Notes: generated by a model from the letters alone, not told the origin. Counted from the first letter of the stretch, positions 9,522 to 55,035 are shown. The stretch: DNA of 64,000 nt from Bacteroidota bacterium (GCA_037128515.1 JBAXWF010000007.1:5021-69020), one strand, 5' to 3'. Translations and numbers: made by a program.

Positions 9522-12500
9522 ATGAAAAAACATTTATTCTTACTTTTTGTATTTATTCTGTTAATGAATTGGGGAGGCAATGCCCAAATAGTTATCAATG
9601 AATATTCTTGTTCCAATGTAAGTTCTTACACTGATAATTTTGGTAATTACGAAGATTGGATTGAGCTTTATAACACCAGTGCTGTTGCAGTAACCATGAA
9701 TGGTTGGTATTTGAGCGACAAAATAACCACTCCTTTGAAATGGCGTATTACAACAGCCACCATTGCAGCCCACGGCTATTTGCGTATTTGGGCATCGGGA
9801 AGAGACATTGGCACCGGAACACTTCATGCTAACTTTAAACTCACCCAATGCAAACCCGAAGATATTATTCTATCAAATGCTTCTGGAACTGCAGCCGATG
9901 TACTCACACTTAAACCTACTTTAGAGGGACATTCGCGCGGGCGAACTACCGATGGTGCCGGTACATGGAGCGTGTTTCTAAATCCTACGCCCGCTGCGGC
10001 AAATACGAACCCATATTCCGATTATGCCGGACGACCTGTGATGAGTGTGGGGCATGGATTTTACACAACAGCGCAAACGGTTTCAATGTCATCTATCACA
10101 CCGGGTGTGGCCATTCGTTACACCCTCGATGGAACAACGCCAACCGCCGCATCCACATTGTATACTGCACCAATCAACATTGCAACAACAAAGGTATTAC
10201 GTGCCATTGCAATTAGTTCTGTTGGCACTACCCCTAATAGTTTTGTAGAGAGTAACACCTATTTTATTAACGAACCACACAGCGTTGCTGTAGTTTCAAT
10301 TTATGGTGACGGTGTAATGGATTTAATGACTGGTACGCAGTCGGAGCCTTACACAGGAATTGAATATTTTGATGAAAATGGCGTTTTCAAAACCGAAAGT
10401 TATGGCAATACCAACAAACATGGTAATGACTCTTGGTCGTATCCGCAGCGTGGTATTGACTTTATCAGCCACGACCAATATGGATACAATTATGCTTTAC
10501 TCGATACCATTTTCAATTCAAAGACTCGGGCAGAGTTTCAACACATCATTTTTAAGGCCGCTGCTAACGATAATTATCCATTCGAAACTCCCGGCAGTGG
10601 CTATGCCTGGGGACCGAGCGACCAATTGGGTGCCGTGCATATTCGAGATTCTTATGTACATACGCTTTCACAAAAAGCAAAACTCCACCTCGACGAACGT
10701 ACTTGGGCTCCGAGCGTTTTGTATGTAAACGGACTTTATTGGGGCGTTTATGATACACGCGAAAAAGTGGACGATGCTGATTTTATCGATTATTATCATC
10801 ACACACCCGAAGACTCTTTGCAAATGCTAAAAACTTGGGGAGGAACATGGAGCGAATATGGCGGGGCTCAAGCTCAAACAGACTGGAATAATTTGTCGAA
10901 TTTTATTACTACAAACAATATGACTATTCCGGCCAACTACGCTTATGTTGACACCATGCTTAGTTTAAAAAGTTTGGCCGATTATGTTATTATAAATTCT
11001 TTTTGTGTTACATCGGATTGGCTTAATTGGAATACACAGTGGTGGAGAGGAATTAATGTGGGTGCCGACAAACGAAAATGGCGTTATACTTTGTGGGACG
11101 AAGATGCAACTTTTCATCATTATGTAAACTATACTGGTATTCCGAATACAAATGTGGATGCGGATCCTTGCGATCCAAATTCTCTGGGTGATCCGGGAGG
11201 TCAAGGGCAAGTTCCGGTACTAAATGCTTTGATGCAAAATCAAACGTTTTATCAATACTACATCATGCGCTATTTCGATTTATTGAATGGTCCGCTCAGT
11301 TGCAACCGCATGACTACAATTTTAGATAGTATGGTGAATGTGATTCAACCTGAAATGCAGCAACAAATCACCAGATGGGGAGCAGGCGGAACGTATGCAG
11401 CTTGGTGGGCAAATTATCAAACGCTTCGCACATTTATTCAAGACAGGTGCCAAACAGTTACTCAGAATTTTGTAGATTGCTGGCCTGTCACAGGTCCATT
11501 TCCAATAAAAGTGAATGTTGTGCCTGCCGGTGCAGGAAATATTGATATCAATTCTCTAAACCTCACTAATTTTGTTTGGTCGGGGCAGTATCCCGGCAAC
11601 ATGAATATATTGATGACAGCGCATCCCAACGGAAATTATTGTTTCGATCATTGGGAGTTTCAGCATCACACGCCTTCGCCAAGTATTAACGACTCTTCTA
11701 TTTCGTTTTTATTTACTATGCACGATAGCATTGTGGCCCATTTCACCAATGGCACAAACCCAACAGCCACTGCTTCTCCATCCACAATTTGTTCAGGTGA
11801 TTCGAGCAATCTGCTTGTGAGTGCAGGAACTACAATTTTGTGGAGCCCTGCCACAGGTTTAAGTTGCACCAATTGTGCTAATCCCACAGCAAATCCTACG
11901 GCTACTACCACCTACACGGTAACCGTATCAGGAGGTTGCGGCACGGGAACAGCCACAGTAACGGTTACGGTATCACCTCCGGGAGTTACCACACCTACCC
12001 TCTCTGCGACCTATCCTGTGTTGTGTATTGGCGATTCGACCGCGATACAGGTTAGCCCCACTGCAACCACCTATGCATGGAGTCCGGCAGCCACGTTAAG
12101 CTGTAATAATTGTGCAAATCCAATAGCTACACCCACCGCCACAACAACCTACACTGTGTCGGTGACGGGAAACTGTAGTTCAGGAACTGCAAGCATTACC
12201 ATAACCATTGCGCCCCCACCCACAGTTACCACAGGTGAAAACCCGACCATTTGCCCCAATAGCAGTATTCAGCTTACGGCATCGGGAGCCACATCGTATG
12301 CCTGGTCGCCTGCAAGCGGTTTGAGTTGCAGCAATTGCTCGAACCCCATTGCATCGCCTGACGCTACGACCATCTACACCATTATTGGTTCGAATGGAAC
12401 TGGCGATGGATGCAAAGACACCACTTCCATGATAGTGTATGTTACCGATGTTTGTCCTGATTTGTATATCCCCACAGGTTTCTCGCCCAATGGCGACTAT

Positions 12501-12725
12501 AACAATGATGTTTATTACATTTATGGGCAAACCACTGCGCTGGATTTGGTTATTTATGACCGATGGGGCCATGTTGTTTTTAAAACGACCGACCAAACTA
12601 AAGGTTGGGATGGTACATTAAATGGTAAGGATTTGCCCTCGGATGTTTATGGTTATAAAATAAGCGTGACCGACTATAAAGGAAATGTAATCTCGCAAGT
12701 GGGCAACATCACGCTGGTGCGATGA
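9522..12725 (+). CDS. CotH kinase-family protein with N-terminal lamin-tail domain, Cys-rich Ig-like repeats and a T9SS type B (gliding-associated, CHU_C) sorting domain
   Basis: Signal peptide; LTD (IVINEYSCSN...WIELYN); CotH core (SVLYVNGLYWGVYDTREKVD); 3-4 repeats of about 70 aa (WSPA.GLSC.NCANP.A.P.ATTTYTV); C-terminus IPTGFSPNGDYNND...GWDG...YGYKI. Confidence 0.8.
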   Translation: MKKHLFLLFVFILLMNWGGNAQIVINEYSCSNVSSYTDNFGNYEDWIELYNTSAVAVTMNGWYLSDKITTPLKWRITTATIAAHGYLRIWASGRDIGTGTLHANFKLTQCKPEDIILSNASGTAADVLTLKPTLEGHSRGRTTDGAGTWSVFLNPTPAAANTNPYSDYAGRPVMSVGHGFYTTAQTVSMSSITPGVAIRYTLDGTTPTAASTLYTAPINIATTKVLRAIAISSVGTTPNSFVESNTYFINEPHSVAVVSIYGDGVMDLMTGTQSEPYTGIEYFDENGVFKTESYGNTNKHGNDSWSYPQRGIDFISHDQYGYNYALLDTIFNSKTRAEFQHIIFKAAANDNYPFETPGSGYAWGPSDQLGAVHIRDSYVHTLSQKAKLHLDERTWAPSVLYVNGLYWGVYDTREKVDDADFIDYYHHTPEDSLQMLKTWGGTWSEYGGAQAQTDWNNLSNFITTNNMTIPANYAYVDTMLSLKSLADYVIINSFCVTSDWLNWNTQWWRGINVGADKRKWRYTLWDEDATFHHYVNYTGIPNTNVDADPCDPNSLGDPGGQGQVPVLNALMQNQTFYQYYIMRYFDLLNGPLSCNRMTTILDSMVNVIQPEMQQQITRWGAGGTYAAWWANYQTLRTFIQDRCQTVTQNFVDCWPVTGPFPIKVNVVPAGAGNIDINSLNLTNFVWSGQYPGNMNILMTAHPNGNYCFDHWEFQHHTPSPSINDSSISFLFTMHDSIVAHFTNGTNPTATASPSTICSGDSSNLLVSAGTTILWSPATGLSCTNCANPTANPTATTTYTVTVSGGCGTGTATVTVTVSPPGVTTPTLSATYPVLCIGDSTAIQVSPTATTYAWSPAATLSCNNCANPIATPTATTTYTVSVTGNCSSGTASITITIAPPPTVTTGENPTICPNSSIQLTASGATSYAWSPASGLSCSNCSNPIASPDATTIYTIIGSNGTGDGCKDTTSMIVYVTDVCPDLYIPTGFSPNGDYNNDVYYIYGQTTALDLVIYDRWGHVVFKTTDQTKGWDGTLNGKDLPSDVYGYKISVTDYKGNVISQVGNITLVR

Positions 12726-12767
12726 ATTTGATTACTAATTTTGTGAAATCATTAAGTTAATACCAAA

Positions 12768-13808
12768 ATGAGGTTTGTGAGAAAAATTTACATCATAATT
12801 TTCCTAGTGTTATTTGCTGCCACATCCGAAGCGCAAGACATCCATTTTTCACAACTCAGTCAAACGCCATTGCTTATTAACCCGGCTGCGGCTGGTGCTT
12901 TTGATGGATACTACCGTGGCATACTTAACTACAAAAGCCAATGGGCATCTATGGGAAAACCCTACAGCACGTTTATGGGTTCGTTTGATATGCCTTTCGA
13001 AAAAAGAGGTATGACTCAACGCGCTTATTTCGGCTTGGGCGCTCATGTTTATTCCGACAAGGCTGGCGATGCTAAGTTATCAACTACGAGTGCTAATGTG
13101 GCCACTTCGTGTATTGTTTCGTTGGGTGCATTTCATAAACTCTCGGCTGGTTTGGCTGTTGGGTTCACGTTGCGCCATGTGGATATTGCTGCTATTAAAT
13201 GGCCAAGTCAGTATGATGGTTCGGCTTACGACCCCTCGCTCCCATCGAATGAACCCAATCGGCTGGGCTCGTTTTATTATTTCGATATGTCGACAGGCAT
13301 TTACTATCAGTTTCTGAAACCGCTAAACCGCTTTCATGGTCGCGAAATTATTCACTTGACAGTGGGGGCAGCTATGTTTCATGCAGCTACTTTGTTTCAA
13401 AACCATAGCGGTGGGAATCCCGGCAAGGTTTCTCCACGATTTGTGGTGAACACTTCGTTGCGCTACGATATTCAAGATACTCGCATTGGGTTGGTGCCTT
13501 CTGTTCTGTATATGTGGCAGGGACCGGCTTATGAACTGGATTTGGGTTTTTTGATACGACTAAAAACTAGCCGACAAACCAACATCACGGGGTTTTTAAC
13601 CGAATCGGCATTTTCGGCGGGTTTGCATTATCGGTATAAAGATGCTATTATTCCACAGGTGTTTTTCGAGATTGCCAATTTTGGTATCGGGATTTCATAC
13701 GATATAAATATTTCGTCGTTTGCGGGCTCGTTGCGTAACAAAGGCGGATTGGAATTTTCGGTTCGTTACTCGCGCATGAAAGGGCCTTTGTATAAAAATA
13801 GAAATTAA
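12768..13808 (+). CDS. PorP/SprF-family type IX secretion system membrane protein
   Basis: QDIHFSQLSQTPLLINPAAAG N-terminal signature, beta-barrel-like composition, and a position immediately downstream of a type B CTD protein. Confidence 0.85.
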   Translation: MRFVRKIYIIIFLVLFAATSEAQDIHFSQLSQTPLLINPAAAGAFDGYYRGILNYKSQWASMGKPYSTFMGSFDMPFEKRGMTQRAYFGLGAHVYSDKAGDAKLSTTSANVATSCIVSLGAFHKLSAGLAVGFTLRHVDIAAIKWPSQYDGSAYDPSLPSNEPNRLGSFYYFDMSTGIYYQFLKPLNRFHGREIIHLTVGAAMFHAATLFQNHSGGNPGKVSPRFVVNTSLRYDIQDTRIGLVPSVLYMWQGPAYELDLGFLIRLKTSRQTNITGFLTESAFSAGLHYRYKDAIIPQVFFEIANFGIGISYDINISSFAGSLRNKGGLEFSVRYSRMKGPLYKNRN

Positions 13809-13832
13809 TAATTTTAAGGTACATTTATTTAA

Positions 13833-14027
13833 ATGAACACGGTTATGGAAAAACGTCATTCGCATCATGCATCGTCGGGGGCTGTTTATGGCTTGGGATT
13901 TTTGGGCGCTGCTATATATTATGTTTCGATGGCCTCGGGTTTTTGGATGGGTGCTTTGGGTTTGGTGAAAGCTTTGGTTTGGCCCGTGTTTTTGGTTTAT
14001 GAGGCTTTGAAGCATTTTGCAGGATAA
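13833..14027 (+). CDS. small membrane protein (two hydrophobic helices)
   Basis: 64-aa ORF containing GAVYGLGFLGAAIYYV and ALVWPVFLVYEAL helices. Confidence 0.4.
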   Translation: MNTVMEKRHSHHASSGAVYGLGFLGAAIYYVSMASGFWMGALGLVKALVWPVFLVYEALKHFAG

Positions 14028-14084
14028 GATTGGATTGCACGAGATTGTGGAACGTGGCAAAAGAGCTACTGTGACAGTGGGCTG

Positions 14085-14375
14085 TTATTTGTTGACTTTG
14101 TAGCCCAAGGCTTGGAGCTTGGACTCTAAGGAGGCTTTGGTTTTTAATGTGGTGTCGTAAACAATTGTTACTACTTTTTTTCGTAGGTGTGCTTTTACAA
14201 AACTAACTCCGTTTTCGGTCATCAGATTTTTCTCGATGGTGGCTTTGCCCTGTTCGCTTAAGGTATCTATTTTAATTTCTATTTGTGTGTTGGTGGTGCT
14301 TTTTTTGGCACAGCCGCTGTTGACAATGGACAGCATGGCGAATAGGCATAGTGTTGTAATGACTACTTTTTTCAT
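14085..14375 (-). CDS. lipoprotein with an HMA-like (ferredoxin-fold) domain lacking the CxxC metal site
   Basis: Lipobox LSIVNSGC. C-terminal pattern ..GV..v...l....v.i.yD......l...l...GYKV is typical of HMA domains, but there is no GMTCxxC. Confidence 0.5.
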   Translation of the reverse strand: MKKVVITTLCLFAMLSIVNSGCAKKSTTNTQIEIKIDTLSEQGKATIEKNLMTENGVSFVKAHLRKKVVTIVYDTTLKTKASLESKLQALGYKVNK

Positions 14376-14539
14376 TGTTTTTTCTATTTTTTTGAATAAC
14401 GCGGTGGTAAAATTACACTAAATAGTTTAATGCGGAATTGTGAAAAAGGGTTGGCAGGTGAATCAGTGGGAAGGGGGTGGGAAATACTAAACGTAATGAG
14501 ATGGGATAGATATGAGCAAAGGGCTGTAAACAGGGGGTT

Positions 14540-15060
14540 GTGTAACTATGACGGAGCAACATCAAGGAATGACGGAGTGACATCAAGGAATGACGACGCC
14601 ACATCAAGGAATGACGACGCAAGAACAAGGAATGACGGGGCAACATCAAGGAATGACGGGGCAACATCAAGGAATGACGGGGCAACATCAGGGAATGACG
14701 ACGCGATAACAAGAAATAACGGTGCAAGAACATGGAATGACGGTGCAACATCAAGGAATGACGGTGAGAGAACAAGGAATGACGGTGGATGTATAGGAAA
14801 TGACGGATGGGATGCATGGAATGGCGATGGGTGTATGCGAAAAGACGGAGGGTTTTTAGAAAATGACGAAGGATTTTCAAGTGATTTTGTTGGGGTAAAT
14901 TGTTTCTGAATTGGAAAAGTGCGATTATGCACCGAGAGAATTGGAAATGTTGGGGCGTTTTTTGGAAATGTAGGTGCGATTATTAGAAATGAAGATTGGA
15001 TTATTGAAATAAATGTAGCGACTATTGAAAATGGTGCAGGGATTTTTTGAAAAGTTGAAC
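14540..15060. repeat. tandem minisatellite B, 21-bp period (16 strict units, a degenerate gap, then about 6 units in the same register)
   Basis: The ATGACGG core recurs at 14548+21n for n=0..15. The TTGGAAATG-type units at 14941, 14962, 14983, 15004 and 15025 have their ATG at 14947+21n, in register with the first block. Confidence 0.95.
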
Positions 15061-15089
15061 TAAAAAAATGAAAGGGAGGGGGGGGAAAT

Positions 15090-15169
15090 AGGTAAGAGGT
15101 AAGAGGTAATTTTTTTTAATGAAGAATGAAGAGTGAAGAGTGAAGAATGAATGTCGATTGTCGATCTAT
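15090..15169. repeat. 7-bp microsatellites (AGGTAAG)x3 and (GAAGAGT/GAAGAAT-type)x7
   Basis: aggtaag aggtaag aggtaat at 15090-15110. gaagaat gaagagt gaagagt gaagaat gaatgtc gattgtc gatctat at 15121-15169. Confidence 0.9.
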
Positions 15170-15287
15170 AAAAAAGGTTGACCGTTTTAACTGGTTTAGT
15201 AATGCTATTTATTTTATATTTTTTTTGTTTTAATTTTTTTGTTGGAAACCGTTGAAACTGTTTTGGGAAGGGAAATTGTTTTGGTGA

Positions 15288-15307
15288 CCCACGAATGAAT
15301 TCGTGGG
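15288..15307. other. perfect palindrome / hairpin cccacgaat-ga-attcgtggg
   Basis: 9-nt arms that are exact reverse complements. Confidence 0.7.
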
Positions 15308-15518
15308 CTATTGTTTTTGGATGATAGGTTGAGGGTGTTTTTTGTTGGTTTTGTTGTTTTATTTTTTTAATTTAATAAGGTTATAAGGTTGATTTTTTGT
15401 GTTGCTTTTTTCTCTACTATGGTTGGCGGAAGGGAAATAAAGTTTTTTTTTTGTTTGAGTTGTTTTTTAAACCGTTGTGGGAAGGGATGGTGATTTATTA
15501 TAGTCTCAGGATTGAAAT

Positions 15519-15560
15519 AGGTAAGAGGTAATAGGCTATAGGCTATAGGCTATAGGTAAT
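15519..15560. repeat. 7-bp microsatellite (AGGTAAG/AGGTAAT/AGGCTAT) x6
   Basis: aggtaag aggtaat aggctat aggctat aggctat aggtaat. Confidence 0.9.
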
Positions 15561-15589
15561 ATGTTTTTTTAGTAGGAGGTAATTTGATT

Positions 15590-15790
15590 TAATGGCGGGG
15601 TGAAAGGGTTGTGGATGGTGGAAGGATGGCAGGGCACAGCGCCGGGAATGAAACAGGCTGGGGATGGCTCGCCCGCGCAAGGGACAGCAGCGAAAAGCCC
15701 GCAGCGCAGCGAGGACTTGTAGCGAATGGCCCGACCCGCAGGGTTGCGCCCAAAAGATGTTGAAGATGGGAGGTTGAAAGTTAAAAAATC
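15590..15790. other. GC-rich non-coding element of unknown function upstream of the GRE operon
   Basis: The stretch gcagggcacagcgccggg...gcccgcagcgcagcgaggacttgtagcgaatggcccgacccgcagggttgcgccc is embedded in AT-rich repeats. Only a spurious antisense ORF overlaps it. Confidence 0.4.
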
Positions 15791-15851
15791 GTATTTCGGC
15801 AATTAAATACCGAATTGTGTTGCTTTTTGTTTTTTTTATTTAAAATTGTAG

Positions 15852-15859
15852 TATTTTTG
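15852..15859 (+). promoter_or_regulatory. -7 promoter box TATTTTTG for the hpd-like operon
   Basis: Exact TAnnTTTG about 50 nt upstream of the ATG at 15908. Confidence 0.4.
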
Positions 15860-15907
15860 TAAATGTTTTAGAGAAAAGGTTACGCAAACCACTAACGGAA
15901 GGTGATT

Positions 15908-18592
15908 ATGAAAGATGATTTTTTAGCTTGTTCGACGGAGATTTATAACTACTACGGTGCGAAGCCGGAAGGCGACATTGAATTGCGCGAGCAAAAGCCG
16001 CAAGCGACGGCGCGTGTGGAAAAACAACGCGAAATGTATTTTGAAGCCAAGTCGTCGGCTTCGGTTGAGTTTCCGTATTGGTACACGCGTAGGTGGGAGG
16101 AATTGGATGGGGAGGTGGCGATTGTGCGCCGCGCGGAAGCGTTGAAAACGGGTTTTGAACATTTGACTCCGGCTGTTTTTCCGGGGGAACTGTTGGCGAT
16201 GCGTAAGGCGATTTATTTGCGGGGCTCCTACCCTATGCCGTGGTTGTCGGAGGGGTTTTTTCTGGCTAAGGAAGATGAGTTGTTTGTGCAAGCGCAAAAC
16301 GCGGGAAAAAATAGTGCCGACGAGGTTACTACTATGGGACAAGGCGGCGGGAATGTGACCCAAAGCGTTGGCAAGGTGATATCGATAGCAGGGAAATTTG
16401 GGTTGCGCAGCGAGGAAATGCCTATTTTGTTGAAAACGGCCAAAAAATGGTTTAACAAATCGGTGGATGATGTGGGGCACAAATATGAGCAGTTGGTTCC
16501 GGATTATCAGACCAAAGAGGAAATTATGCGTGCGGTGATTTGCATGTTTGATTCGGGTTACACGCTGCCTCAAGGCCGGGAGGTGATGAACTATTACTAT
16601 GGGCTGCAATATGGCATTGGGGGTATTAAAGGGATTTGCAACGAAAAGATTGGCGCAGCAGCGGGTAAACCGGGCATGGATAGGATTTATTTTTATAGGG
16701 CGGTGCACACGGTGCTGGAGGGTTTGCAAACCTGGATACTGAACTATGCTAAAGAGGCGCAACTGATGGCTTCGCTGGAAACAGACGCTGCGCAGAAACA
16801 GGAGTTTTTGGAAATGGAAGAGCGGCTGGTGTGGCTTTCGGAAAATCGTCCGCGTTCGTTTCATGATGCGTTGCAATTGATTTGGATTTTGCATGTGGCG
16901 GTGCTGAACGAGGATGCTATTTCGGGTTTGTCGCCCGGTCGCTTGGGTCAGGTGTTGTTTCCCTACTGGAAACGGGATATGGAAAAAGGTGTGCTGGACC
17001 GAGCTCGTTCGATTGAGTTGCTGGAGTGTATGCGTATGAAATTTACGGAATTGGATTGTTTTGCATCGATGGGTGTTGTGGGGGGTGTGTTGAGTGGAAA
17101 CACGTTTAACAACCTTTGTGTTGGGGGCTTGGATAAAGATGGCAATAGTGCTGCGAACGAACTGGAGGTGCTGATAATGGAATCGGCCATGAGTTGCGAT
17201 ACGCCGCAGCCTACGTTGAGTTTGCTGTTTGACGAGAAACTGCCGGAAGCGTTTTTGCTGAAAGGGGTGGATTGTACGAAAATTGGTACGGGGTATCCGG
17301 CTTGGGTGAACAACCGCGTGGGGATGGAGTTTTTGCTGAATAACTTTAAAAAGGAAGGCATGGATGTGGAAGAAGCGCGTGCATGGGCTATAGGGGGATG
17401 CTTGGAAACATCTGCCGGAAGCTGGATGCCGCTGGAGTTGGATGGGGAAACTTGGTTTATTCCGGGTGGTTCGGCACCGGCTACTAGTGTGGGTGTGCAT
17501 TTTATTTCGTTGCCCAAAGTGCTGGAAGCGGTTTTATATAACGGATTGGATAAACGCACGGGACGCCGTGTATATCCGGCACACGACCGCGAATTGACAT
17601 CATATAACGCGATTTGGGATGTGTTTAAAAACTATTTCAGCATTACGGTGGAGGTGCTTACGTATGCCAACAACATTCAACACGATGTGTGGGGCAAGGT
17701 GTCGCCATCTATCATCAACAGTATGTTGAAACCCGATTGTCTGGAGGTGGGAAAAGATATTAGCAACAAAGGCTGCCGCTATAACCGTACGTTTAATGTG
17801 GAGATTTGTGGTGGTGTGAATTTGGTAAACTCGCTGGCATCGATAAAAAAGAATGTGTTTGAAGAAAAAAACTTTACACTTACGGAACTAAAACTGGCTA
17901 TTGATAGCAACTTTGGTTATGTTTCGGCTTTGGAAACGGGCTCGTATAGTTTAACCGAACAGGTGAAAACGGATGATTATATGGATTGGTTAAAAATACA
18001 TAAGCAATGTATGGATGCTCCGAAATATGGGAACGATGATTTGTATGTGGATTCTATTTTTAAAGAATGGCAGATTTGGTTTAGTGGGATGTGCGAGCAC
18101 TATGTTTCTATTTACGACGAACCCTTGTATTCGTGCCAAATATCGGTTTCGACGCATGCCCCCATGGGTGCTGTTACGCTTGCCACAGCCGACGGACGTT
18201 TGTGCGGTACGACATTTTCGGATGGTTCGGTTTCGGCTTATCCGGGAACGGATAAAAACGGACCCTACGCTTTGTTTAATTCGGCGACATGTTATAATCA
18301 TGCTTTGTCGCAAAACTCGCAGCTCAATATGAAGATTCACCCTTCGGTGGTGCGAGGCCGCGAGGGATCGCGTAAGTTTTTGGAAATGATAAAAGCGTAT
18401 TTGCGTAAAGGTGCTTTTCATGCCCAGTTTAATGTGGTGGATTCGCGTATGCTGAAAGAAGCACAGAAAAACCCGGACAACTACAGAGGATTGATGGTGC
18501 GGGTGGCAGGTTTTACACAATATTGGGTGGAACTTGGCAAGCAGATACAAGACGAAGTTATTGCGCGGACAGAATATGAACAAATTAATTAA
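15908..18592 (+). CDS. hpdB: glycyl radical enzyme, 4-hydroxyphenylacetate decarboxylase large subunit type
   Basis: C-terminal RVAGF glycyl radical motif, GGCLE thiyl loop, and Ser/His/Glu positions at a constant offset to remembered 4-HPAD residues (see finding). ATG at 15908 is preferred over the track GTG at 15902. Confidence 0.8.
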   Translation: MKDDFLACSTEIYNYYGAKPEGDIELREQKPQATARVEKQREMYFEAKSSASVEFPYWYTRRWEELDGEVAIVRRAEALKTGFEHLTPAVFPGELLAMRKAIYLRGSYPMPWLSEGFFLAKEDELFVQAQNAGKNSADEVTTMGQGGGNVTQSVGKVISIAGKFGLRSEEMPILLKTAKKWFNKSVDDVGHKYEQLVPDYQTKEEIMRAVICMFDSGYTLPQGREVMNYYYGLQYGIGGIKGICNEKIGAAAGKPGMDRIYFYRAVHTVLEGLQTWILNYAKEAQLMASLETDAAQKQEFLEMEERLVWLSENRPRSFHDALQLIWILHVAVLNEDAISGLSPGRLGQVLFPYWKRDMEKGVLDRARSIELLECMRMKFTELDCFASMGVVGGVLSGNTFNNLCVGGLDKDGNSAANELEVLIMESAMSCDTPQPTLSLLFDEKLPEAFLLKGVDCTKIGTGYPAWVNNRVGMEFLLNNFKKEGMDVEEARAWAIGGCLETSAGSWMPLELDGETWFIPGGSAPATSVGVHFISLPKVLEAVLYNGLDKRTGRRVYPAHDRELTSYNAIWDVFKNYFSITVEVLTYANNIQHDVWGKVSPSIINSMLKPDCLEVGKDISNKGCRYNRTFNVEICGGVNLVNSLASIKKNVFEEKNFTLTELKLAIDSNFGYVSALETGSYSLTEQVKTDDYMDWLKIHKQCMDAPKYGNDDLYVDSIFKEWQIWFSGMCEHYVSIYDEPLYSCQISVSTHAPMGAVTLATADGRLCGTTFSDGSVSAYPGTDKNGPYALFNSATCYNHALSQNSQLNMKIHPSVVRGREGSRKFLEMIKAYLRKGAFHAQFNVVDSRMLKEAQKNPDNYRGLMVRVAGFTQYWVELGKQIQDEVIARTEYEQIN

Positions 18593-18607
18593 CAGGGAAA
18601 AGAAATT

Positions 18608-18841
18608 ATGATACACTACGATTGCAAATATTACCTTAGTTTGGATGTTTTTAAAGGTATTTGTAAACTCGATAAAAACAAAATAAATGCTGACGAGGTA
18701 TCGTGCGACAAATTTGAGAAAGCACAGAAATGCAAATTTTGTTCGAATTATACTGCTACCCAACCCAACTTGGGCAGGTGCAAGAACACGTATGATGCGT
18801 ATCCGGAAATGAATGCCGTGACATGCAATGAATACAAGTGA
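18608..18841 (+). CDS. hpdC: 4-hydroxyphenylacetate decarboxylase small (gamma) subunit type, two predicted [4Fe-4S] sites
   Basis: 77 aa beginning MIHYDCKYY. Ligand sets are H3/C6/C19/C33 and C42/C45/C58/C73. It lies between the GRE and activase genes as in hpdBCA. Confidence 0.7.
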   Translation: MIHYDCKYYLSLDVFKGICKLDKNKINADEVSCDKFEKAQKCKFCSNYTATQPNLGRCKNTYDAYPEMNAVTCNEYK

Positions 18842-19760
18842 GCTAAAAGCAACTATTTTCGATATTCAGGGACTCTCGGTACACGACGGACCCGGGTGTC
18901 GCACGCTTATATTTTTGAACGGTTGCACGATGTCGTGTTTTTGGTGCTCCAACCCCGAAGGCATGAGCAGCAGACCCAGTTTATTGTATTATCAACCCAA
19001 TTGTGTTGTGTGTGGCAATTGTGCCAACAGTTGTGCATACAACGCCATTACGGTGGAAACAGATAAAATTGCGATTGCCCGTACTATTTGTAAAAACTGT
19101 AGCGAGCCCGTGTGCGTTAGCCAATGCTTTACGGATGCATTGCGACTGAGTGGTTATGAAATAACGGTTGGAAAACTGATGGAAATTATACAACGCGACC
19201 GACAGTTTTGGGGCAGCCATGGTGGGATGACGCTTACGGGTGGGGAGCCTTTGATGCAAATTGATTTTGCCGAAGAGCTGTTGAAAAGGTGTTACGACTC
19301 GTATGTTCACACTGCCATAGAAACATGCGGAAACATTGCGTGGCAAAATTTTGAACGGGTGCTTTCCTACTTGGATTGGATATTTTTTGATATTAAGCAT
19401 TTTGATAACGCAACGCATAAAAAGGGTACGGATGTGAAAAACACTTTAATACTTGACAATGCGAAAAAGCTTGCAGCGGGGTTTAAAGGTAAACTTATGT
19501 TTCGGTTGCCCTTGGTTCCTGATTTCAACGATTCGGACAGCAACCTGAAAGCAACGATTGCCTTTCTGAAGGATTGTGGCAGAAATGAAATTAATATTTT
19601 GCCGCTGCACAGGCTGGGTGGCGAAAAATACAAAATGCTGGATAAAGAAAACGTGATTGCTGATTACGTTATTCCTACTCATGAATCGTTAAAAACGATA
19701 AAAAATGTTTTTGCCGAAAGGGGTATAACATGTTATATCGGTAGCGAAACGCCGTTTTGA
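18828..19760 (+). CDS. hpdA: glycyl radical enzyme activating protein (radical SAM, with additional ferredoxin-like clusters)
   Basis: GCTMSCFWCSNPE (CX3CX2C), CVVCGNCANSC and CKNCSEPVCVSQC. Overlaps hpdC by 14 nt. Confidence 0.85.
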   Translation: MNTSELKATIFDIQGLSVHDGPGCRTLIFLNGCTMSCFWCSNPEGMSSRPSLLYYQPNCVVCGNCANSCAYNAITVETDKIAIARTICKNCSEPVCVSQCFTDALRLSGYEITVGKLMEIIQRDRQFWGSHGGMTLTGGEPLMQIDFAEELLKRCYDSYVHTAIETCGNIAWQNFERVLSYLDWIFFDIKHFDNATHKKGTDVKNTLILDNAKKLAAGFKGKLMFRLPLVPDFNDSDSNLKATIAFLKDCGRNEINILPLHRLGGEKYKMLDKENVIADYVIPTHESLKTIKNVFAERGITCYIGSETPF

Positions 19761-21766
19761 TTGGTTTTTCTCCAAATTAAATAATTCAAATATCGCCACA
19801 CAAAATCCTGAGAACTTTTGTTGGCGATGGTTGAGAAAATACGTTGCCAATTATAGAATATTTTCTGGGTATCAACTATGTTGTCGGTATCGTAATGCTG
19901 CAAATCTTGTATGATACTTTTCATTCGTTTGTTTTCGTTCATCAACCAAAATGTTTGTGGTGTTGCAAACCCCAGTTTGTCGGTGCGGCGATAAATGCTC
20001 TGGGGCAATACATCTTTCATGGCATTTCGCAACAGGTATTTGCTCCAACCTTTATGAATTTTGTAGGCAGCCGGCATGGAAAAAACGGATTCAATTAAAT
20101 TGATATCGTCGGCAAAAGGCGTTCGGGATTCAATGGAATATTGCATGGAACAGCGGTCTTCCCATCGCAGCAGATTTTTAAGATAATTGTGTGTAAAAAA
20201 ATCGTGCAGCAATCTATTCATGTTTTTGCTGCTGTAGTCCTGAGCCATTGATAGGTTTGAATTGTTTTGTTTTAGAAAATCTGCCGAAAGAAACGAAGTT
20301 TCGTTGTGCGTTTTTTTATACAAACTGTTTTTAGCGGATTCGGACAAACTCTCGTTGAGTGCTACTTTGAGAAGGGATTTGAAAAGTACGGAGGCATTCA
20401 ATGGCGCATGTTTCAAATTCATGCATTCGGAAGCTAAGTTGCCAAGTCTAAATTTTTTAATTAATCCGATATAAAAAGAAATATAAAACGGGACATACCC
20501 GGCAAATAGTTCGTCGGCACCCTGCCCGTCGAGCAAAATGGTGATTCCCTCTTGCTTTGCCTTTTTCATTACTGCATTTTGGGCATAGGTACTGGTTGAG
20601 AATAAAGGAGCATCTTGATAATAGATGATGGTTTGGAGTTCGTCGAAGAGCTGTGCAGCGCTACATTCGGTTTTATGCCAGTTTAAATTGTTTTTTGTAA
20701 CAACTTGTTCAGCCCATTTGGATTCGTCGCAAGCTTGGTTTGGGTGAGTGGCGGTGAAAGCATGCAAATTGCCTTGCAATTGTTTGAGATGCCGCGAATC
20801 ATTGATATGCTTTGCTACTCCAATTATAGAACTGCTATCGATACCCCCACTCAAACAAAAACCCACCGGCACATCGGAACGCAAACGCAGTTCGACCGAG
20901 GAAACTATTTTTTGGCGCGTTTGCTCAATCATTTCGCGTGATTTCAATTCGTTGAACTTCTCGGCAGAAGGATTTACACTTAGTTGATAGTAGCGATTTA
21001 CGCGGAATTGTCGGGTGTTTAAATCATAAATAAAGTAATGAGAAGGAAGCAGTTCCTTTACATTATGATAAAAACCGTTCTCATCTATTTCAACCTTGCT
21101 TTGCACCAAATAATTGTATACTGCCTGATGGTTAATTGCGGTATCGAGCGGTAAAGTGTATAATGCCTTCTGCTCCGAAGCAAATGCCAGCATATTGTTT
21201 TGGTGGTAATAATAAAAAGGTTTTACGCCAAATCTGTCGCGACAGGCAATGAGGAAATTTTCTTTGCGGTTGAAAATGACGAAGGACCACATACCATTTA
21301 GTTTGTCGAGAAATCTCAAGCCCCAATATTCATAGGCTTTTAAAAGCACCTCTATATCGCTTTTGGTTCTGAAGGTCATGCCCTTTTCCTCCAACTCCTC
21401 TCGGAGCTCGATATAATTATATATTTCGCCATTGCAGGCGATCCAAATACTTTTGTCGGCATTGCACATGGGCTGATGACCGGCAGCAGAGAGGTCGATG
21501 ACGGAGAGCCTGCGATGTGCTATTCCAAGAAAAACGTCTTCCGAAAAATTATCGATATGATTTTTGGGCGAATACGCGAATGCATTATTCCATGATTCGG
21601 GCTGTGTGTCGTTGGCGCCATAAATAAAACTTTCGGTTTCGTTAAAAAAAGCAAAACCCTCATCATTGGGCCCGCGATGTTTCAGCGTATCGGACATTAT
21701 TTTGAGACGAGCAGCGATTGATTGCTCATTCGAATTAAAATCAAGAATACCTGCAATACCGCACAT
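19733..21766 (-). CDS. asnB: asparagine synthase (glutamine-hydrolysing)
   Basis: MCGIAG N-terminal nucleophile (Ntn amidotransferase) and SGGIDSS PP-loop. Confidence 0.85.
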   Translation of the reverse strand: MCGIAGILDFNSNEQSIAARLKIMSDTLKHRGPNDEGFAFFNETESFIYGANDTQPESWNNAFAYSPKNHIDNFSEDVFLGIAHRRLSVIDLSAAGHQPMCNADKSIWIACNGEIYNYIELREELEEKGMTFRTKSDIEVLLKAYEYWGLRFLDKLNGMWSFVIFNRKENFLIACRDRFGVKPFYYYHQNNMLAFASEQKALYTLPLDTAINHQAVYNYLVQSKVEIDENGFYHNVKELLPSHYFIYDLNTRQFRVNRYYQLSVNPSAEKFNELKSREMIEQTRQKIVSSVELRLRSDVPVGFCLSGGIDSSSIIGVAKHINDSRHLKQLQGNLHAFTATHPNQACDESKWAEQVVTKNNLNWHKTECSAAQLFDELQTIIYYQDAPLFSTSTYAQNAVMKKAKQEGITILLDGQGADELFAGYVPFYISFYIGLIKKFRLGNLASECMNLKHAPLNASVLFKSLLKVALNESLSESAKNSLYKKTHNETSFLSADFLKQNNSNLSMAQDYSSKNMNRLLHDFFTHNYLKNLLRWEDRCSMQYSIESRTPFADDINLIESVFSMPAAYKIHKGWSKYLLRNAMKDVLPQSIYRRTDKLGFATPQTFWLMNENKRMKSIIQDLQHYDTDNIVDTQKIFYNWQRIFSTIANKSSQDFVWRYLNYLIWRKTNQNGVSLPI

Positions 21767-42787: not shown

Positions 42788-42880
42788 TTTTCTTAATAGG
42801 GGTGCCTTAATACATACGGGCTGAGATTAAACCCTCTGAACCTGATCCGGATAATGCCGGCGTAGGGAGTAAGGGTAAAC
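42788..42880 (+). promoter_or_regulatory. TPP (THI-box) riboswitch
   Basis: aggggtgcc...ggctgagat...accctctgaacctgatccggataatgccggcgtagggag matches the conserved THI element core (GGGGUGC, CUGAGA, ACCUGAUCCGGAUAAUGCCGGCG, AGGGA). Confidence 0.9.
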
Positions 42881-42940
42881 TTAATGGATGGTATTTGCCT
42901 CTGACACCATCGCGAAGTTTAACAGAAAAATAAAAAAGTC

Positions 42941-45316
42941 ATGAAAAAAGTTTTGTTCTGTTTGGTCATTCCAATGCTATTACCAATAATCAGCCTGGCT
43001 CAATTCAATATTTCCGGACACGTTTCGGATAAAAATTCGGCCGCCAAACTTTCGGGAGCATCAATAGGTATCGAAGGTTTGTTTATTGGAACAATTAGTG
43101 ATGATGAAGGAAACTTCACCATCAAAAATCTTAAAAAGGGCGTTTACAAGCTGCGAATTACTTTTATGGGGTATGCTGATTTGTTGAAGACCGTGGAAGT
43201 TTCACAAAACACCAGCGTCAATATAGAGATGTCAAAAAACACGATATTGCAGGAGGAAGTAATTATAAGCGCAACGCGAACCTCAGAAAATCAGGCGAGC
43301 ACTTTTACAAACATCAACAAAAAACAACTAGCCGAATTAAATCATGGACAGGATTTGCCTTATTTGCTGAATACAACGCCGGCCCTAGTTAGCAGTTCGG
43401 ATGCCGGAAATGGGGTTGGGTATACATCATTGCGCATTCGTGGGAGCGATTTAACGCGAATTAATGTAACTATAAATGGGATTCCGGTGAATGATGCCGA
43501 ATCGCAAGGAGTTTTTTGGGTTGATATGCCCGATTTGGCCTCGTCGATTGATAATGTTCAAATACAACGTGGCATTGGCACATCAACCAATGGATCGGCG
43601 GCTTTTGGTGCCAGTATAAATTTTCAGACTACGAAACTCAACCCAAAGCCTTATGCGGTGTATGATTTAGAATATGGTTCGTTTAACACCTGGAAACACT
43701 CGCTTATGGCTGGCACGGGATTGATTGAAAATCATTGGGCCTTTGATGTTCGCTTATCGAAACTAAACTCTGACGGCTATATTGAAAGGGCTTCAACCGA
43801 CTTGAAATCGTTGTTTTTTAGTGGTGGCTATTATGGCAAGAATACGCTATTGAAAGTTGTTGTATTTTCGGGTAAGGAAAAAACGTATCAGGCCTGGAAT
43901 GGTGTTCCTAAGGATTCGTTGAAAACCCATCGCAGATACAACCCTTTTACTTACGAAAATCAGACCGACAATTACCAACAAGATAACTACCAGCTATTAT
44001 TTTCGCAGGGCATAGGAAAACGATTTTTGGTAAATGCGGCTTTGCATTATACTTATGGGCGAGGGTACTATGAAGAATATATGTCAGAGGATGATTTTTC
44101 TAAATATGGACTACCCTATCCAATTATTGGGAATGATACGATTGCAACAACAAATTTGATACGACAGAAATGGTTGAATAATCATTTTTATGGGTTTACT
44201 TTCTCAGGAACTTACAATAATCATAGAAATTTGAAGATTACGCTAGGTGGCGCCGGAAACAAGTATGAGGGTGATCATTACGGAAAAATTATTTGGGCGC
44301 AATATGCAAGCGAAACTCCAATAAATTATCAATGGTATGATAATGGTTCATTAAAAAGCGAAATGAGTCTTTATGGAAAAGTGGAATACAATCCGATAAA
44401 AAAAATTACTGCATACTTAGATTTGCAATACCGAACAATATATTTCGGCTTGGATGGCATGGACGATAAACTGCGGAACATTACACAAAAACATAATTTT
44501 AGTTTTTTCAATCCGAAGATTGGCTTTAACTACGATATTACGAATAAGCACAGGGTATACTTGGCTTTGGCCCTATCGAACCGCGAACCCAATGGGAATA
44601 ATTTTGCCGATGCAAATCCCTTGAATCCTTTGCCAAAGCCAGAAACTATGTATAATGCTGAGCTTGGCTATACTTTCAACAGCAAGTATGTTACTACAAC
44701 CCTGAATGGCTATTACATGTATTATAATAAGCAGTTGGTGTTAACCGGTGCGATTAACGATGTGGGCTATGCTATTATGACCAACGTGGCGCAAAGCTAT
44801 CGTGCAGGGATTGAAATTTGTGCAGCAGCACGGTTGTTTAAACGCTTTACATGGGAAATGAATGCCTGTTTCAGTCAGAATAAAATTTTGGGATTTACCG
44901 AATTTGTGGATGATTGGGATCATGGCGGGCAAATTGAAAACAAGATTGGGAAAACTAATATTGCTTTTTCGCCCACAGTGGTTGCATCGAATACTTTTGC
45001 GTATAATTTTATTGAAAACTTTACTATTTCGTTGATGACGAAGTATGTGAGTCGCCAATATATAGACAATACCACGAGCATGGACCGTTCGTTGAAACCC
45101 TATTGTGTTTCGGATGTGGTGATGGATTATGCTTTCAAGCTTGGAATTATTAAAGAAATACGCGTAACGCTGATGCTGAACAATATTTTTAACTTGCAGT
45201 ACGAAAACAATGCCTGGGTGTATCGCTATTATAATAATGGAACCTATAATGCATCGGATGGGTATTTTCCTCAGGCAGGAATTAACTTTTTGGCTGGTTT
45301 AAAAGTGAGATTCTAA
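42941..45316 (+). CDS. TonB-dependent receptor with N-terminal carboxypeptidase-regulatory-like domain (predicted thiamine-related uptake)
   Basis: Signal peptide, CarbopepD_reg-like domain (GHVSD...LSGASI), plug (DAESQGVFWVDMPD), long beta-barrel, and terminal F. Preceded by the TPP riboswitch. Confidence 0.85.
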   Translation: MKKVLFCLVIPMLLPIISLAQFNISGHVSDKNSAAKLSGASIGIEGLFIGTISDDEGNFTIKNLKKGVYKLRITFMGYADLLKTVEVSQNTSVNIEMSKNTILQEEVIISATRTSENQASTFTNINKKQLAELNHGQDLPYLLNTTPALVSSSDAGNGVGYTSLRIRGSDLTRINVTINGIPVNDAESQGVFWVDMPDLASSIDNVQIQRGIGTSTNGSAAFGASINFQTTKLNPKPYAVYDLEYGSFNTWKHSLMAGTGLIENHWAFDVRLSKLNSDGYIERASTDLKSLFFSGGYYGKNTLLKVVVFSGKEKTYQAWNGVPKDSLKTHRRYNPFTYENQTDNYQQDNYQLLFSQGIGKRFLVNAALHYTYGRGYYEEYMSEDDFSKYGLPYPIIGNDTIATTNLIRQKWLNNHFYGFTFSGTYNNHRNLKITLGGAGNKYEGDHYGKIIWAQYASETPINYQWYDNGSLKSEMSLYGKVEYNPIKKITAYLDLQYRTIYFGLDGMDDKLRNITQKHNFSFFNPKIGFNYDITNKHRVYLALALSNREPNGNNFADANPLNPLPKPETMYNAELGYTFNSKYVTTTLNGYYMYYNKQLVLTGAINDVGYAIMTNVAQSYRAGIEICAAARLFKRFTWEMNACFSQNKILGFTEFVDDWDHGGQIENKIGKTNIAFSPTVVASNTFAYNFIENFTISLMTKYVSRQYIDNTTSMDRSLKPYCVSDVVMDYAFKLGIIKEIRVTLMLNNIFNLQYENNAWVYRYYNNGTYNASDGYFPQAGINFLAGLKVRF

Positions 45317-47863: not shown

Positions 47864-50608
47864 GTGTTGAAAAACCTGATTATATTTTTACAAAAAAAAT
47901 ATAACCCTCTGCTATCCAAAGTTGATAATGACCTTGGATGGATTTCTTTTTGGTATGCTTGCATCCGAAGAGTGGCTTTAGCTTTGCCTGTTGTTTTCCA
48001 AATGTTTTTCTTCTCAAAAAGTAAATCCGGTTTAAATCGTTACTATAAAAAACTTTTATTCCCTGTTTTAATACTATTTCTTCTTTCGGTTCAACCTGTG
48101 TTTGTTCGGGGGCAAAATAATAACGACAAAAATACAGAAACAGCCAGTCAGGGTAAAAATAAAAAAGCCTTCGACGAATGGAAAGAAATTTTTAAACTGA
48201 GAGGTACTTTAAACAAAAACCAATATGGCAGCCGCTATTTTATGGGCTTGTTCGATGGGCGGTTTATTGGCCCCAACGACCAGGATAATTACGGCATACG
48301 CACCTACAGCACCGCTTGGGATTATCTGATTTTTGGCAACAGTTTGCTTTCGATGCTTATCAACATGGGTTTTACGGCCGACAACATCAATTTGATATCG
48401 AGCGGCAACGTGCCCAATCATCATTCGTTTTATTTGGGTTGCATTGGGCATTATGCTATTTCGCAGGAGAAATCGTGGGTGGACTCTACTTTTAACAGAA
48501 CGGTGGGCAAAAATGTGGCTGTCGACAAGCCATTTAAAGCCTCGATTCCACGTTTGGGTATCGATTCAACTGCAGTTAAAGTTGACTTGGGTGGGTTTTA
48601 TATTAAACGGAAAGTGGAAAAGAAAACCGTTTACGATACCATAGCATTTCCGCAGATTGAAGGCACGGGTTCGTGGAAAGATGCCAACAATTTTGATTTG
48701 GTTTACGAATGGATGGAGCTATTTTTTAATGCGTACCGCGATAGTCTTGATATCAGCAAGCGGCAGTTTGCAAAAAAAACACCGAAAGAACTTCAACAAT
48801 GCATTTTGCAACGATTCAATACTAAAAAATATCTTGAAGCCAACAATTTGACTGAGGACGAATTGAATTATAAAATTGTGGATGGCTACAAGAATGACAT
48901 CTTTGATTTGGTGCATCAGCCCAATGAAAAGGTTTTTAGAATGGGACAATACGAAATGTTTAGGTATTTTAACGATGTGTATTGGCGCGATTTGAACGAA
49001 ACTGTGGTGATGATTGGCCGCGGACTGAACGATGCTGGCGAGCTGGAGCCATACTCTTATGTGTGGAAACCTTCGGACAAGAAAAACCCGGTGTGGCATT
49101 GCGCTTTTCAGTTCGACAAAGACCGCGAAACCAATCCGCGCTCGGGTTTAATAAATTATGTGATGGTGCCTTATGGCACCAAAGGCCGAAATATGCCCAC
49201 GGTGGTGCCGAACGATTTGCCTCCATTTTCGCAATTCGAGGGGGTGGTGATTTGGAGCGACAACTGCAAAAAGCAATCGTATTCGAACAAAGACGACTTG
49301 TGGCTGAACACGCTTAATGGGCGCATGATTGACCGCAATTTCAAATGTTATCCCTACGAGGTGGGTATTTTGCCGCTGAACGACGATGGCACGGTGGATG
49401 GTATTTATAAAATTTATGTTTGGAAAGACGATAAAGATTACTGGGCGTATATTTTTTGCGGAAAGCACGCGGGAGTTAGAGGTGGCAAGCCCGGAAAATC
49501 GTTTGTTGACCAGGTGGATAATTTCCGCAAAGATTATAACTTTTCGGATTATTGGTATTTTTATAAAGACGTGGATTTTGAGAAGGATGTGGTGAAGAAC
49601 ATGCCGCAGTTTATTGGCGATTTGGAAAGTTTGGAAAGTAGGGTTACGGGCATTAAAGGCAAAACCATGCCCAAAGTGTGTATTCCCATTGTAACGCCCA
49701 ACGATAAAAATCCTAAAAAGCCGCGTATTGATAATTTCTATGTTTTGCTGAACGCCGACAACACAGGAACCGTTTTCCCAGATAAAATTAATTTCTTTTG
49801 GAAAATTGATGTGTACGACGATTATGCGAACAATATGCTGGTGAAGAAAAAATCGGTGATTATTAAAATAAACAAACAGGAAATTCCATTGGATAAATTC
49901 GACGACTATTTACGAACCAACAACTTGAGCGGTTCGCAGGTGCGCAAAGCCAACGATCAGTTTGAAACCGATTTGAAAAATAGTAAAAAGAAAGACCCTG
50001 TGGTGAATTTAAACACTTTGTACAACAACCATGTGTATAATTTGGCCAACTCTGACGAAACCCAAAACCTGATTAACCAAGTGAAAGAAGACCTGATGGC
50101 GGTGCGCTACGAGTTGCCCAAAGCCGAACGGACCCTAGAGCTGGCACAGGACGAAAATGCAGATAAACTCAAAGACTTAAAAAAACAACTCGACGAACTG
50201 GAACTGACAAAAAAAACCAAGAAACCTATTTATGCTGAAACCAAAGCGCAATACGATAAACTGAAAGAAGGGGTGGATAAAAAACTTTTTAGCTACAACA
50301 AACTGGTGGCAAAAGAAACCTCCTTGGTTGATTTGTTGCAACTATCGCAAGAGCGATTGGATATTAATTTAAACAACGATTTGGCCAACATCAACTCGCA
50401 CATTGCTTTTTTGGAAAGCGAACGCGCCAAATACCAAACACAGCTGGACCAACTAAAAGCCGAAGGCAAAACCGAAACCGATAACTACCGTCAGGTGCAA
50501 ACATCAATTGATAACAAACGACAAGAACTGATTGAAGCCGAAAACAAACGCGACAAGGTGCAACAGGAAATAGAGAATCAGAAGAAATTGCAGTCGGAAA
50601 AAGAGTGA
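47864..50608 (+). CDS. large hypothetical membrane-anchored protein with C-terminal coiled coil
   Basis: 914-aa uninterrupted ORF. N-terminal hydrophobic segments; the last ~200 aa are K/E/Q/L-rich heptad-like. No catalytic motif recognised. Confidence 0.6.
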   Translation: MLKNLIIFLQKKYNPLLSKVDNDLGWISFWYACIRRVALALPVVFQMFFFSKSKSGLNRYYKKLLFPVLILFLLSVQPVFVRGQNNNDKNTETASQGKNKKAFDEWKEIFKLRGTLNKNQYGSRYFMGLFDGRFIGPNDQDNYGIRTYSTAWDYLIFGNSLLSMLINMGFTADNINLISSGNVPNHHSFYLGCIGHYAISQEKSWVDSTFNRTVGKNVAVDKPFKASIPRLGIDSTAVKVDLGGFYIKRKVEKKTVYDTIAFPQIEGTGSWKDANNFDLVYEWMELFFNAYRDSLDISKRQFAKKTPKELQQCILQRFNTKKYLEANNLTEDELNYKIVDGYKNDIFDLVHQPNEKVFRMGQYEMFRYFNDVYWRDLNETVVMIGRGLNDAGELEPYSYVWKPSDKKNPVWHCAFQFDKDRETNPRSGLINYVMVPYGTKGRNMPTVVPNDLPPFSQFEGVVIWSDNCKKQSYSNKDDLWLNTLNGRMIDRNFKCYPYEVGILPLNDDGTVDGIYKIYVWKDDKDYWAYIFCGKHAGVRGGKPGKSFVDQVDNFRKDYNFSDYWYFYKDVDFEKDVVKNMPQFIGDLESLESRVTGIKGKTMPKVCIPIVTPNDKNPKKPRIDNFYVLLNADNTGTVFPDKINFFWKIDVYDDYANNMLVKKKSVIIKINKQEIPLDKFDDYLRTNNLSGSQVRKANDQFETDLKNSKKKDPVVNLNTLYNNHVYNLANSDETQNLINQVKEDLMAVRYELPKAERTLELAQDENADKLKDLKKQLDELELTKKTKKPIYAETKAQYDKLKEGVDKKLFSYNKLVAKETSLVDLLQLSQERLDINLNNDLANINSHIAFLESERAKYQTQLDQLKAEGKTETDNYRQVQTSIDNKRQELIEAENKRDKVQQEIENQKKLQSEKE

Positions 50609-55013: not shown

Positions 55014-55035
55014 CGCCGCACACCAACCTAATCGC

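Follow-up and report, generated by a model that had tools for sequence, protein, structure and literature searches.

The subject of this analysis is a three-gene cassette, hpdB-hpdC-hpdA, in a 64,000-nt stretch of DNA from a Bacteroidota bacterium (GCA_037128515.1 JBAXWF010000007.1:5021-69020; the whole stretch is referred to as the window and is numbered from its first nucleotide). Judged from its sequence, the locus very probably encodes a functional three-component 4-hydroxyphenylacetate decarboxylase (HPAD), an oxygen-sensitive glycyl radical enzyme (GRE) that would form p-cresol from 4-hydroxyphenylacetate (4-HPA), a product of tyrosine breakdown, and we put the probability of this reading at roughly 0.85. 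A first-pass annotation of the same DNA had proposed a complete operon of this type, and hidden Markov model (HMM) matches, alignment to the enzyme of Clostridium scatologenes (CsHPAD), conserved residues, and gene order all agree with that proposal. The span it gave, 15852-19760, is exact at its right end, while its left end lies 50 nt upstream of the open reading frame (ORF). The three genes are as follows.

15908..18592, plus strand: hpdB, the HPAD glycyl-radical large (catalytic) subunit, 894 aa from the ATG at 15908
18608..18841, plus strand: hpdC, the gamma (small) subunit, 77 aa, with two [4Fe-4S] ligand sets
18828..19760, plus strand: hpdA, a radical-SAM activating enzyme, 310 aa

Gene content, gene order, family membership, and residue conservation can be read directly from the DNA. 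ORF calling returned three co-directional plus-strand frames, at 15902..18592, 18608..18841, and 18828..19760. An in-frame stop lies 5' of hpdB at 15893, and the gene has an alternative GTG start at 15902, which gives 896 aa; public gene calls use the ATG at 15908. Residues are numbered here on the 896-aa form, so that G870 is Gly868 of the 894-aa protein. A spacer of 15 nt separates hpdB from hpdC, and hpdC and hpdA overlap by 14 nt; both this overlap and an hpdC start 16 nt downstream of hpdB had been noted in the first-pass annotation and are present. At its 3' end, the operon does meet asnB as described, with hpdA and asnB convergent and overlapping by 28 nt. The order hpdB-hpdC-hpdA is the canonical order of HPAD operons and is reported for characterised p-cresol producers.

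In a search against the sequences of solved structures, HpdB residues 32-893 aligned with residues 30-896 of CsHPAD (PDB 2Y8N/2YAJ; chain 2y8n_A) at E=0 and 1018 bits, with 51.6% identity over 861 aligned positions, while the other solved GRE classes reached at most 314 bits. The NCBIfam equivalog model for the HPAD large subunit, NF033715, matched residues 19-894 of 896 with 1413.8 bits (cutoff 1150), whereas NF033718, the equivalog for indoleacetate decarboxylase (IAD), scored 707.7 bits, under its cutoff of 1100. Pfam PFL-like and Gly_radical domains were both found. The glycyl radical loop reads RVAGFTQ (G870) and the thiyl loop GGCLE (C500, E502), and the key codons are S341 TCG at 16922, C500 TGC at 17399, E502 GAA at 17405, H533 CAT at 17498, E634 GAG at 17801, and G870 GGT at 18509. 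Every residue, codon, and motif (RVAGF and GGCLE) named for HpdB in the first-pass annotation was found at its position. Relative to C. scatologenes, the numbering is shifted by a constant -3 from about residue 258 through to the C-terminus, and the key-residue numbers that had been given for CsHPAD are consistent with the literature. Alignment and HMM comparison had been suggested as checks; the alignment makes these residues homologous to those of CsHPAD, and HpdB passes NF033715.

Conservation extends to the whole known substrate pocket. CsHPAD residues F214, R223, S344, V399, L400, F405, C503, E505, H536, F537, E637, I750, V752, and G873 are all identical in HpdB, where the pocket consists of E634, H533, S341, F216, R226, V396, L397, F402, F534, I747, and V749, each as in CsHPAD. 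The catalytic and pocket residues were found to be invariant in 120 homologues plus CsHPAD (121 sequences).

The small subunit is recognisable on its own. HpdC scored 76.7 bits against the small-subunit equivalog NF033716 (cutoff 50), with E=1.3e-21 for a protein of 77 aa, so that a chance match is far excluded, and it matched PDB 2y8n_B over its full length at E=6e-9. The Pfam domain 4HPAD_g_N was found with 39.6 bits (cutoff 25), and HPIP_like scored 24.8 bits, slightly under its cutoff of 28.1. Two ligand sets are predicted to bind clusters, H3/C6/C19/C33 (three Cys and one His) and C42/C45/C58/C73 (four Cys). Both sets stand as first listed for the 77-aa ORF, and the comparison with HpdC-family profiles that had been called for came out in its favour through NF033716. 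The gamma subunit of CsHPAD and 25 relatives keep all eight ligand columns, with Cys replacing His in two of the relatives. The gamma subunit of HPAD is known to hold one four-Cys and one three-Cys/one-His [4Fe-4S] cluster, and GRE small subunits have been observed only in HPAD, BSS, and MASS (PMC13450708, PMC6181972, PMC13598205). The gamma subunit had been described as a hallmark of HPAD; this is right in so far as IAD lacks a small subunit in the literature, but it leaves unmentioned the small subunits that BSS and MASS possess.

In the activase HpdA, all the Cys positions previously listed are present: the CX3CX2C motif at C33/C37/C40 and two ferredoxin-like Cys motifs, C59/62/65/69 and C88/91/96/100. 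The protein scored 313.5 bits against TIGR02494, the general GRE-activase subfamily (cutoff 174), and contains the Pfam domains Radical_SAM and Fer4_12.

From these features we infer activity, a physiological substrate, expression, and a source of 4-HPA, and the steps of a reaction can be transferred by homology from the published HPAD mechanism. Under anoxia, the [4Fe-4S] cluster at the CX3CX2C motif of HpdA would cleave S-adenosylmethionine, assisted by the two auxiliary clusters, and the resulting 5'-deoxyadenosyl radical would take a hydrogen from Gly870 in the RVAGFTQ loop of HpdB. The Gly870 glycyl radical would then generate a thiyl radical on Cys500. 4-HPA is expected to bind with its carboxylate beside Cys500, Ser341, and Glu502 and with its phenolic hydroxyl held by Glu634 and His533; a Kolbe-type oxidation would remove one electron from the carboxylate, coupled to loss of the phenol proton to Glu634, and CO2 would be released. 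Return of the hydrogen from Cys500, itself reprotonated by Glu502, would yield p-cresol. HpdC, with its two [4Fe-4S] clusters, would be required for a soluble and active complex with HpdB.

Several observations weigh against assigning the locus to HPAD. HpdA scored 349.2 bits against NF033717, the HPAD activase equivalog, under the cutoff of 420; this model is its top family regardless, with the IAD activase model behind at 300.8 bits. A 2026 review states that mutagenesis has yet to confirm what the active-site residues of HPAD do (PMC13450708). CsHPAD, the nearest characterised enzyme compared, shares only the 51.6% identity given above. The cassette has no transporter or regulator within ~ 5 kb, in line with the first-pass statement that none is adjacent, and no gene for converting tyrosine to 4-HPA was found in the 64-kb window.

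That a different glycyl-radical decarboxylase (an indoleacetate, phenylacetate, or AAD-type enzyme) or a member of another GRE class has been misread as HPAD is effectively refuted. Such enzymes do have the same fold as HpdB and its Gly and Cys loops, and the IAD model still reports 707.7 bits, but this score is well under its cutoff; HpdB has Glu634 at a position that is Leu in IAD and not Glu in PhdB, the gamma subunit is one that IAD and AAD lack, and the structural matches fall to 222 bits for AAD (7E7L) and 150-166 bits for BSS and MASS. A more subtle alternative keeps the architecture and chemistry of HPAD and changes only the substrate to another para-hydroxylated arylacetate, such as 3,4-dihydroxyphenylacetate or methoxylated lignin-derived analogues, so that the product would mainly be a substituted methylphenol. 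Clostridial HPAD also accepts 3,4-dihydroxyphenylacetate, and the breadth of substrates could differ here because HpdB and CsHPAD are just 51.6% identical. The clade comes, going by the titles of its metagenome-assembled genome (MAG) records, from lakes, groundwater, fens, and sediments, and the cassette lacks the major facilitator superfamily (MFS) arylacetate transporter reported beside the HPAD and IAD genes of Olsenella scatoligenes. Yet all known pocket residues equal those of CsHPAD and are invariant in the clade, with no sign in the sequence of a reshaped pocket, and HpdB clears the equivalog HMM by a wide margin. We therefore regard a switch of substrate as quite unlikely and retain HPAD as the assignment.

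A protein search with HpdB returned 1074 matches at E<=1e-50, the best 120 of which are 70-100% identical. More than 100 relatives lie at 70-87% identity, chiefly in MAGs of Bacteroidales or other Bacteroidota, and NCBI (PGAP) or IMG already gives many of them the name "4-hydroxyphenylacetate decarboxylase large subunit". HpdB of the window forms its own 90% cluster, with its best relative at 87% identity. One homologue of 893 aa in Bacteroidetes bacterium GWF2_41_31 (P0063, 78% identity) is labelled "MFS transporter", evidently a database misannotation. A scan of species-representative genomes gave 29 Bacteroidota-type loci at 70-87% identity. In 25 of the 29, hpdC and hpdA follow directly downstream of hpdB; in the remaining four, the contig ends at or just after hpdB, or the hpdC match is fragmentary. 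The first-pass annotation had implied that the trait is rare in Bacteroidota, which was overstated: an HPAD from Tannerella forsythia (UniProt A0A1D3UC78) is among the previously validated GREs (PMC6181972), and many MAG proteins are annotated automatically.

The order hpdB-hpdC-hpdA was also kept in four further loci on long contigs, with a different context for the cassette in each. One of these contigs carries a Crp/FNR-type regulator upstream of the cassette. In another (locus L033, 10850-17431 of a 3.75-Mb contig), a PDDEXK_3 gene lies between hpdB and hpdC, and the cassette is followed by genes for MarR, a membrane-fusion protein, an MFS pump (RND/MFS efflux), and an OEP outer-membrane factor; these efflux genes could be a module for p-cresol efflux. 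Clustering of flanking ORFs across 25 loci found a class I/II aminotransferase beside the cassette in 4-5 of them (the closest relative, L001, at 12149-14245, and L002, L026, L029, and L011), which fits a tie to tyrosine catabolism, and an uncharacterised multi-pass membrane protein of ~ 240 aa also flanks the cassette in three of the aminotransferase-bearing relatives. The aminotransferase is possibly a tyrosine transaminase, and the membrane protein a possible transporter of arylacetate or cresol. The window contains neither, and no other conserved accessory gene emerged from the 25-locus clustering.

We consider the cassette a self-contained module: it occurs in different genomic contexts across Bacteroidota, which fits past lateral spread, and this is more likely than a recent acquisition. 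The idea that the cassette was recently acquired as a foreign island in the present genome draws first on composition. Genes of the window average 0.389 in GC and 0.383 in third-position GC (GC3), with standard deviations of 0.048 and 0.084, and hpdB stands at 0.474 and 0.526. In codon usage, no other window gene of more than 400 aa is as distant from the rest as hpdB, at 0.159 (next 0.155, 0.143, and 0.142), and NNG codons make up 34-79% of its four-fold families compared to 10-39% in other window genes, including EF-G. The flanks are non-syntenic in 29 related genomes, none of which has flanking genes in common with the window, and contexts differ among the four long contigs. Proteins 79-83% identical are labelled Desulfobacteraceae, Armatimonadetes, Cloacimonadales, and Ignavibacteriaceae, although these other-phylum labels may be binning errors.

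Against a recent arrival, the composition of hpdC and hpdA is host-like. The operon had been described as richer in GC than its neighbours; this is true of hpdB, hpdA is only at 0.428, and two other window genes match hpdB in GC. Within the cassette, the GC and codon-usage analysis that had been advised singles out hpdB, and hpdB is modestly richer in GC than its flanks in most relatives as well. No integrase, transposase, or flanking direct repeats were found at the locus, and the only tRNA gene of the window (tRNA-His, 2712-2787) is ~ 13 kb away. No variant of the locus without the cassette is on record, and the sequence is identical in two samples.

The base composition may also reflect a local bias. 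From ~ 13.8 to 17.5 kb (~ 4 kb), the plus strand is rich in G and poor in C, over the repeats that precede hpdB and over two-thirds of the gene from its 5' end, with a GC skew of 0.29-0.54 in 1-kb windows compared to -0.17 to +0.19 elsewhere in the window. Cytosine accounts for just 5-13% of the intergenic DNA in this zone, and G occupies 41-48% of the third positions in the first ~ 1.5 kb of hpdB, falling to 27-29% near the 3' end. The bias also covers upstream non-coding DNA and a minus-strand gene, and none of 21 homologous hpdB genes has it (third-position G 0.11-0.32), which argues for a local, lineage-specific bias and not for the signature of a donor. Taken together, the "acquired cassette" proposed in the first-pass annotation is suggestive only: non-syntenic flanks and the atypical codon usage of hpdB speak for it, while mobility genes, mobile copies, and a cassette-less variant were not found. 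We lean against a recent acquisition, though not strongly, and regard past lateral spread of a self-contained module among anaerobes as more likely.

Further explanations of the locus were tried and set aside. For carriage by mobile elements, no HPAD-type copies were found in PLSDB plasmids (best 29% identity, to other GREs), INPHARED phages, or IMG/VR contigs. For an allele without the cassette, exact-match searches with the PorP and AsnB proteins of the flanks gave the same arrangement only. The contig of the second sample breaks at 15587-15617 with identical sequence on either side, and no structural variant is shown by it. A mosaic or recombinant hpdB was rejected since L001 was the nearest relative in 6/6 gene segments. 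A replication origin behind the skew and repeats was likewise rejected: DnaA boxes form no cluster, and near-matches to the box numbered 25 compared to 20 expected window-wide, with none in 14376-15907.

The neighbouring features, with the candidate promoter of the cassette, are listed below.

9522-12725, upstream of hpdB: CotH-domain protein with a type IX secretion system (T9SS) type-B sorting domain (TIGR04131)
12768-13808, upstream of hpdB: PorP/SprF protein (TIGR03519)
Upstream of hpdB: 64-aa ORF
Upstream of hpdB, minus strand: HMA-like gene, 96 aa
15852..15859, plus strand: candidate -7 promoter element of the Bacteroidota type, TATTTTTG, which matches TAnnTTTG; TTTG at 15826-15829
19733-21766, minus strand, downstream of hpdA: asparagine synthase (asnB)
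54949-57561: Por_Secre_tail match

The matches to TIGR04131 and TIGR03519 adjoining the cassette and to Por_Secre_tail elsewhere in the window support the earlier description of the host as a T9SS-bearing Bacteroidota. Beyond asnB lie genes for PCMT, a GFO/IDH/MocA oxidoreductase, and cell-envelope functions, and the rest of the window is chromosome-like (EF-G, UvrA, aconitase). A TPP riboswitch at 42788-42885 (74.8 bits, over the gathering score) stands directly ahead of a gene for a TonB-dependent receptor (42941-45316), which suggests thiamine-regulated uptake across the outer membrane. A 914-aa ORF at 47864-50608 had no Pfam match at E<=1e-5.

The gap before hpdB is 1.5 kb long (14376-15907) and holds a 21-nt array and several microsatellites of 7-16 nt. 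The array is a degenerate tandem repeat at ~ 14506-14991 with a 21-nt period, a consensus of about ATGACGGTGCAACATCAAGGA, and ~ 17-23 units, and both strands have several open frames across it. The 159-aa frame at 14430-14909, which contains NDGATSR heptads, is a gene in the public annotation and has no family match. Short repeats of 7-16 nt extend to 15556. The first-pass annotation had reported ~ 0.85 kb of repeats upstream of the operon; the repeats are real, but their length is not exactly 0.85 kb, given the array at ~ 14506-14991 and the short repeats up to 15556. Microsatellites with 7-nt units, (AGGTAAG)n and (ATAGGCT)n, lie at 15090-15109, 15516-15556, and 50613-50683, in two distant intergenic regions, with (AGGTAAG)n recurring at 50613-50683.

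Within the same gene-less tract, a perfect 8-bp hairpin at 15288-15307, CCCACGAA-TGAA-TTCGTGGG, is followed by a T-rich tail and looks like a terminator; it also gave a weak match to Acido-Lenti-1 (23.8 bits vs 37). Directly 5' of hpdB, an island of 170 nt with 63% GC (15590-15760) interrupts AT-rich intergenic DNA, has its left edge at the break in the second sample's contig, and contains a match to Flavo-1 RNA (RF01705) at 15666-15740 with 30.3 bits, under the gathering score of 42. A conserved riboswitch or leader RNA for the cassette was considered and rejected: no Rfam match upstream of hpdB reached the gathering threshold, neither strand of 15570-15800 folded better than shuffled sequence (z = +1.9 and +1.0), and blastn found no counterpart of this region upstream of hpdB in 31 related loci. 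The element TATTTTTG at 15852-15859 fits the Bacteroides consensus TAnnTTTG and may be a promoter; a leader of ~ 40 nt would then be possible. A sigma-70 scan of the 15852-15859 region gave nothing convincing.

p-Cresol is a bacteriostatic phenol and a uremic-toxin precursor in humans. Discussion of HPAD centres on Clostridia and Coriobacteriia, and we found no publication describing the environmental Bacteroidales clade. The window locus is one more well-supported example of a Bacteroidota HPAD and, with more than 100 close homologues, shows that environmental Bacteroidales MAGs commonly carry the trait, a point of use when anoxic cycling of carbon and amino acids is annotated. Specialists will not find the locus surprising, because the NCBI and IMG pipelines already name such proteins and the Tannerella forsythia HPAD is published, and it opens no long-standing question. 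Two bolder readings go further. In the first, the mostly uncultured Bacteroidales that carry this large clade (~ 52% identical to the clostridial enzymes, 70-87% internally) would be overlooked yet significant makers of p-cresol or of related methylphenols where lakes, groundwater, fens, and sediments are anoxic. In the second, the G-rich zone would stem from a mutational or recombinational process that is local, strand-specific, and linked to the repeat tract, and not from donor codon usage. We offer both as speculation and think them improbable.

Among known systems, the window locus most closely resembles HpdBCA of C. scatologenes and Clostridioides difficile (CsdBCA; 2Y8N, 2YAJ), with which it has in common the B-C-A order and a large subunit that aligns from one end to the other. 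The Gly loop RVAGFTQ (clostridial loop: PMC13450708) and the Cys loop GGCLE are identical, as are the residues corresponding to Ser344, Glu505, His536, and Glu637 and the hydrophobic pocket, and the window proteins match the three-Cys-plus-His and four-Cys sets of the gamma subunit and the three cluster motifs of the activase. They differ in that HpdC has 77 aa compared to 86 aa in clostridial HPAD, through two short deletions, and in that the host is a Gram-negative, T9SS-bearing Bacteroidota whereas the clostridial hosts are Firmicutes.

IAD and PhdB belong to the same GRE decarboxylase subclass as the window enzyme, with the Gly and Cys loops and the first Glu (Glu1) in common, and HPAD and IAD have two loop extensions in common (PMC13450708, PMC6181972, PMC13598205). 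IAD has no small subunit and carries Leu at the position of Glu637 (Glu2), and PhdB is without that Glu (PMC13450708, PMC6181972, PMC13598205); the window enzyme, by contrast, has both Glu634 and a gamma subunit. AAD (PDB 7E7L) is a distinct, subunit-less 4-HPA decarboxylase that also forms p-cresol (PMC13450708, PMC6181972, PMC13598205), and its 222-bit match to HpdB (7e7l_A, E=8e-65) covers only residues 264-891, with no accessory subunit on the AAD side. The BSS and MASS structures are more distant still, at 150 bits for 4pkc_A and 166 bits for 9o8u_A, and the sole small ORF of the window locus matches the gamma subunit of HPAD.

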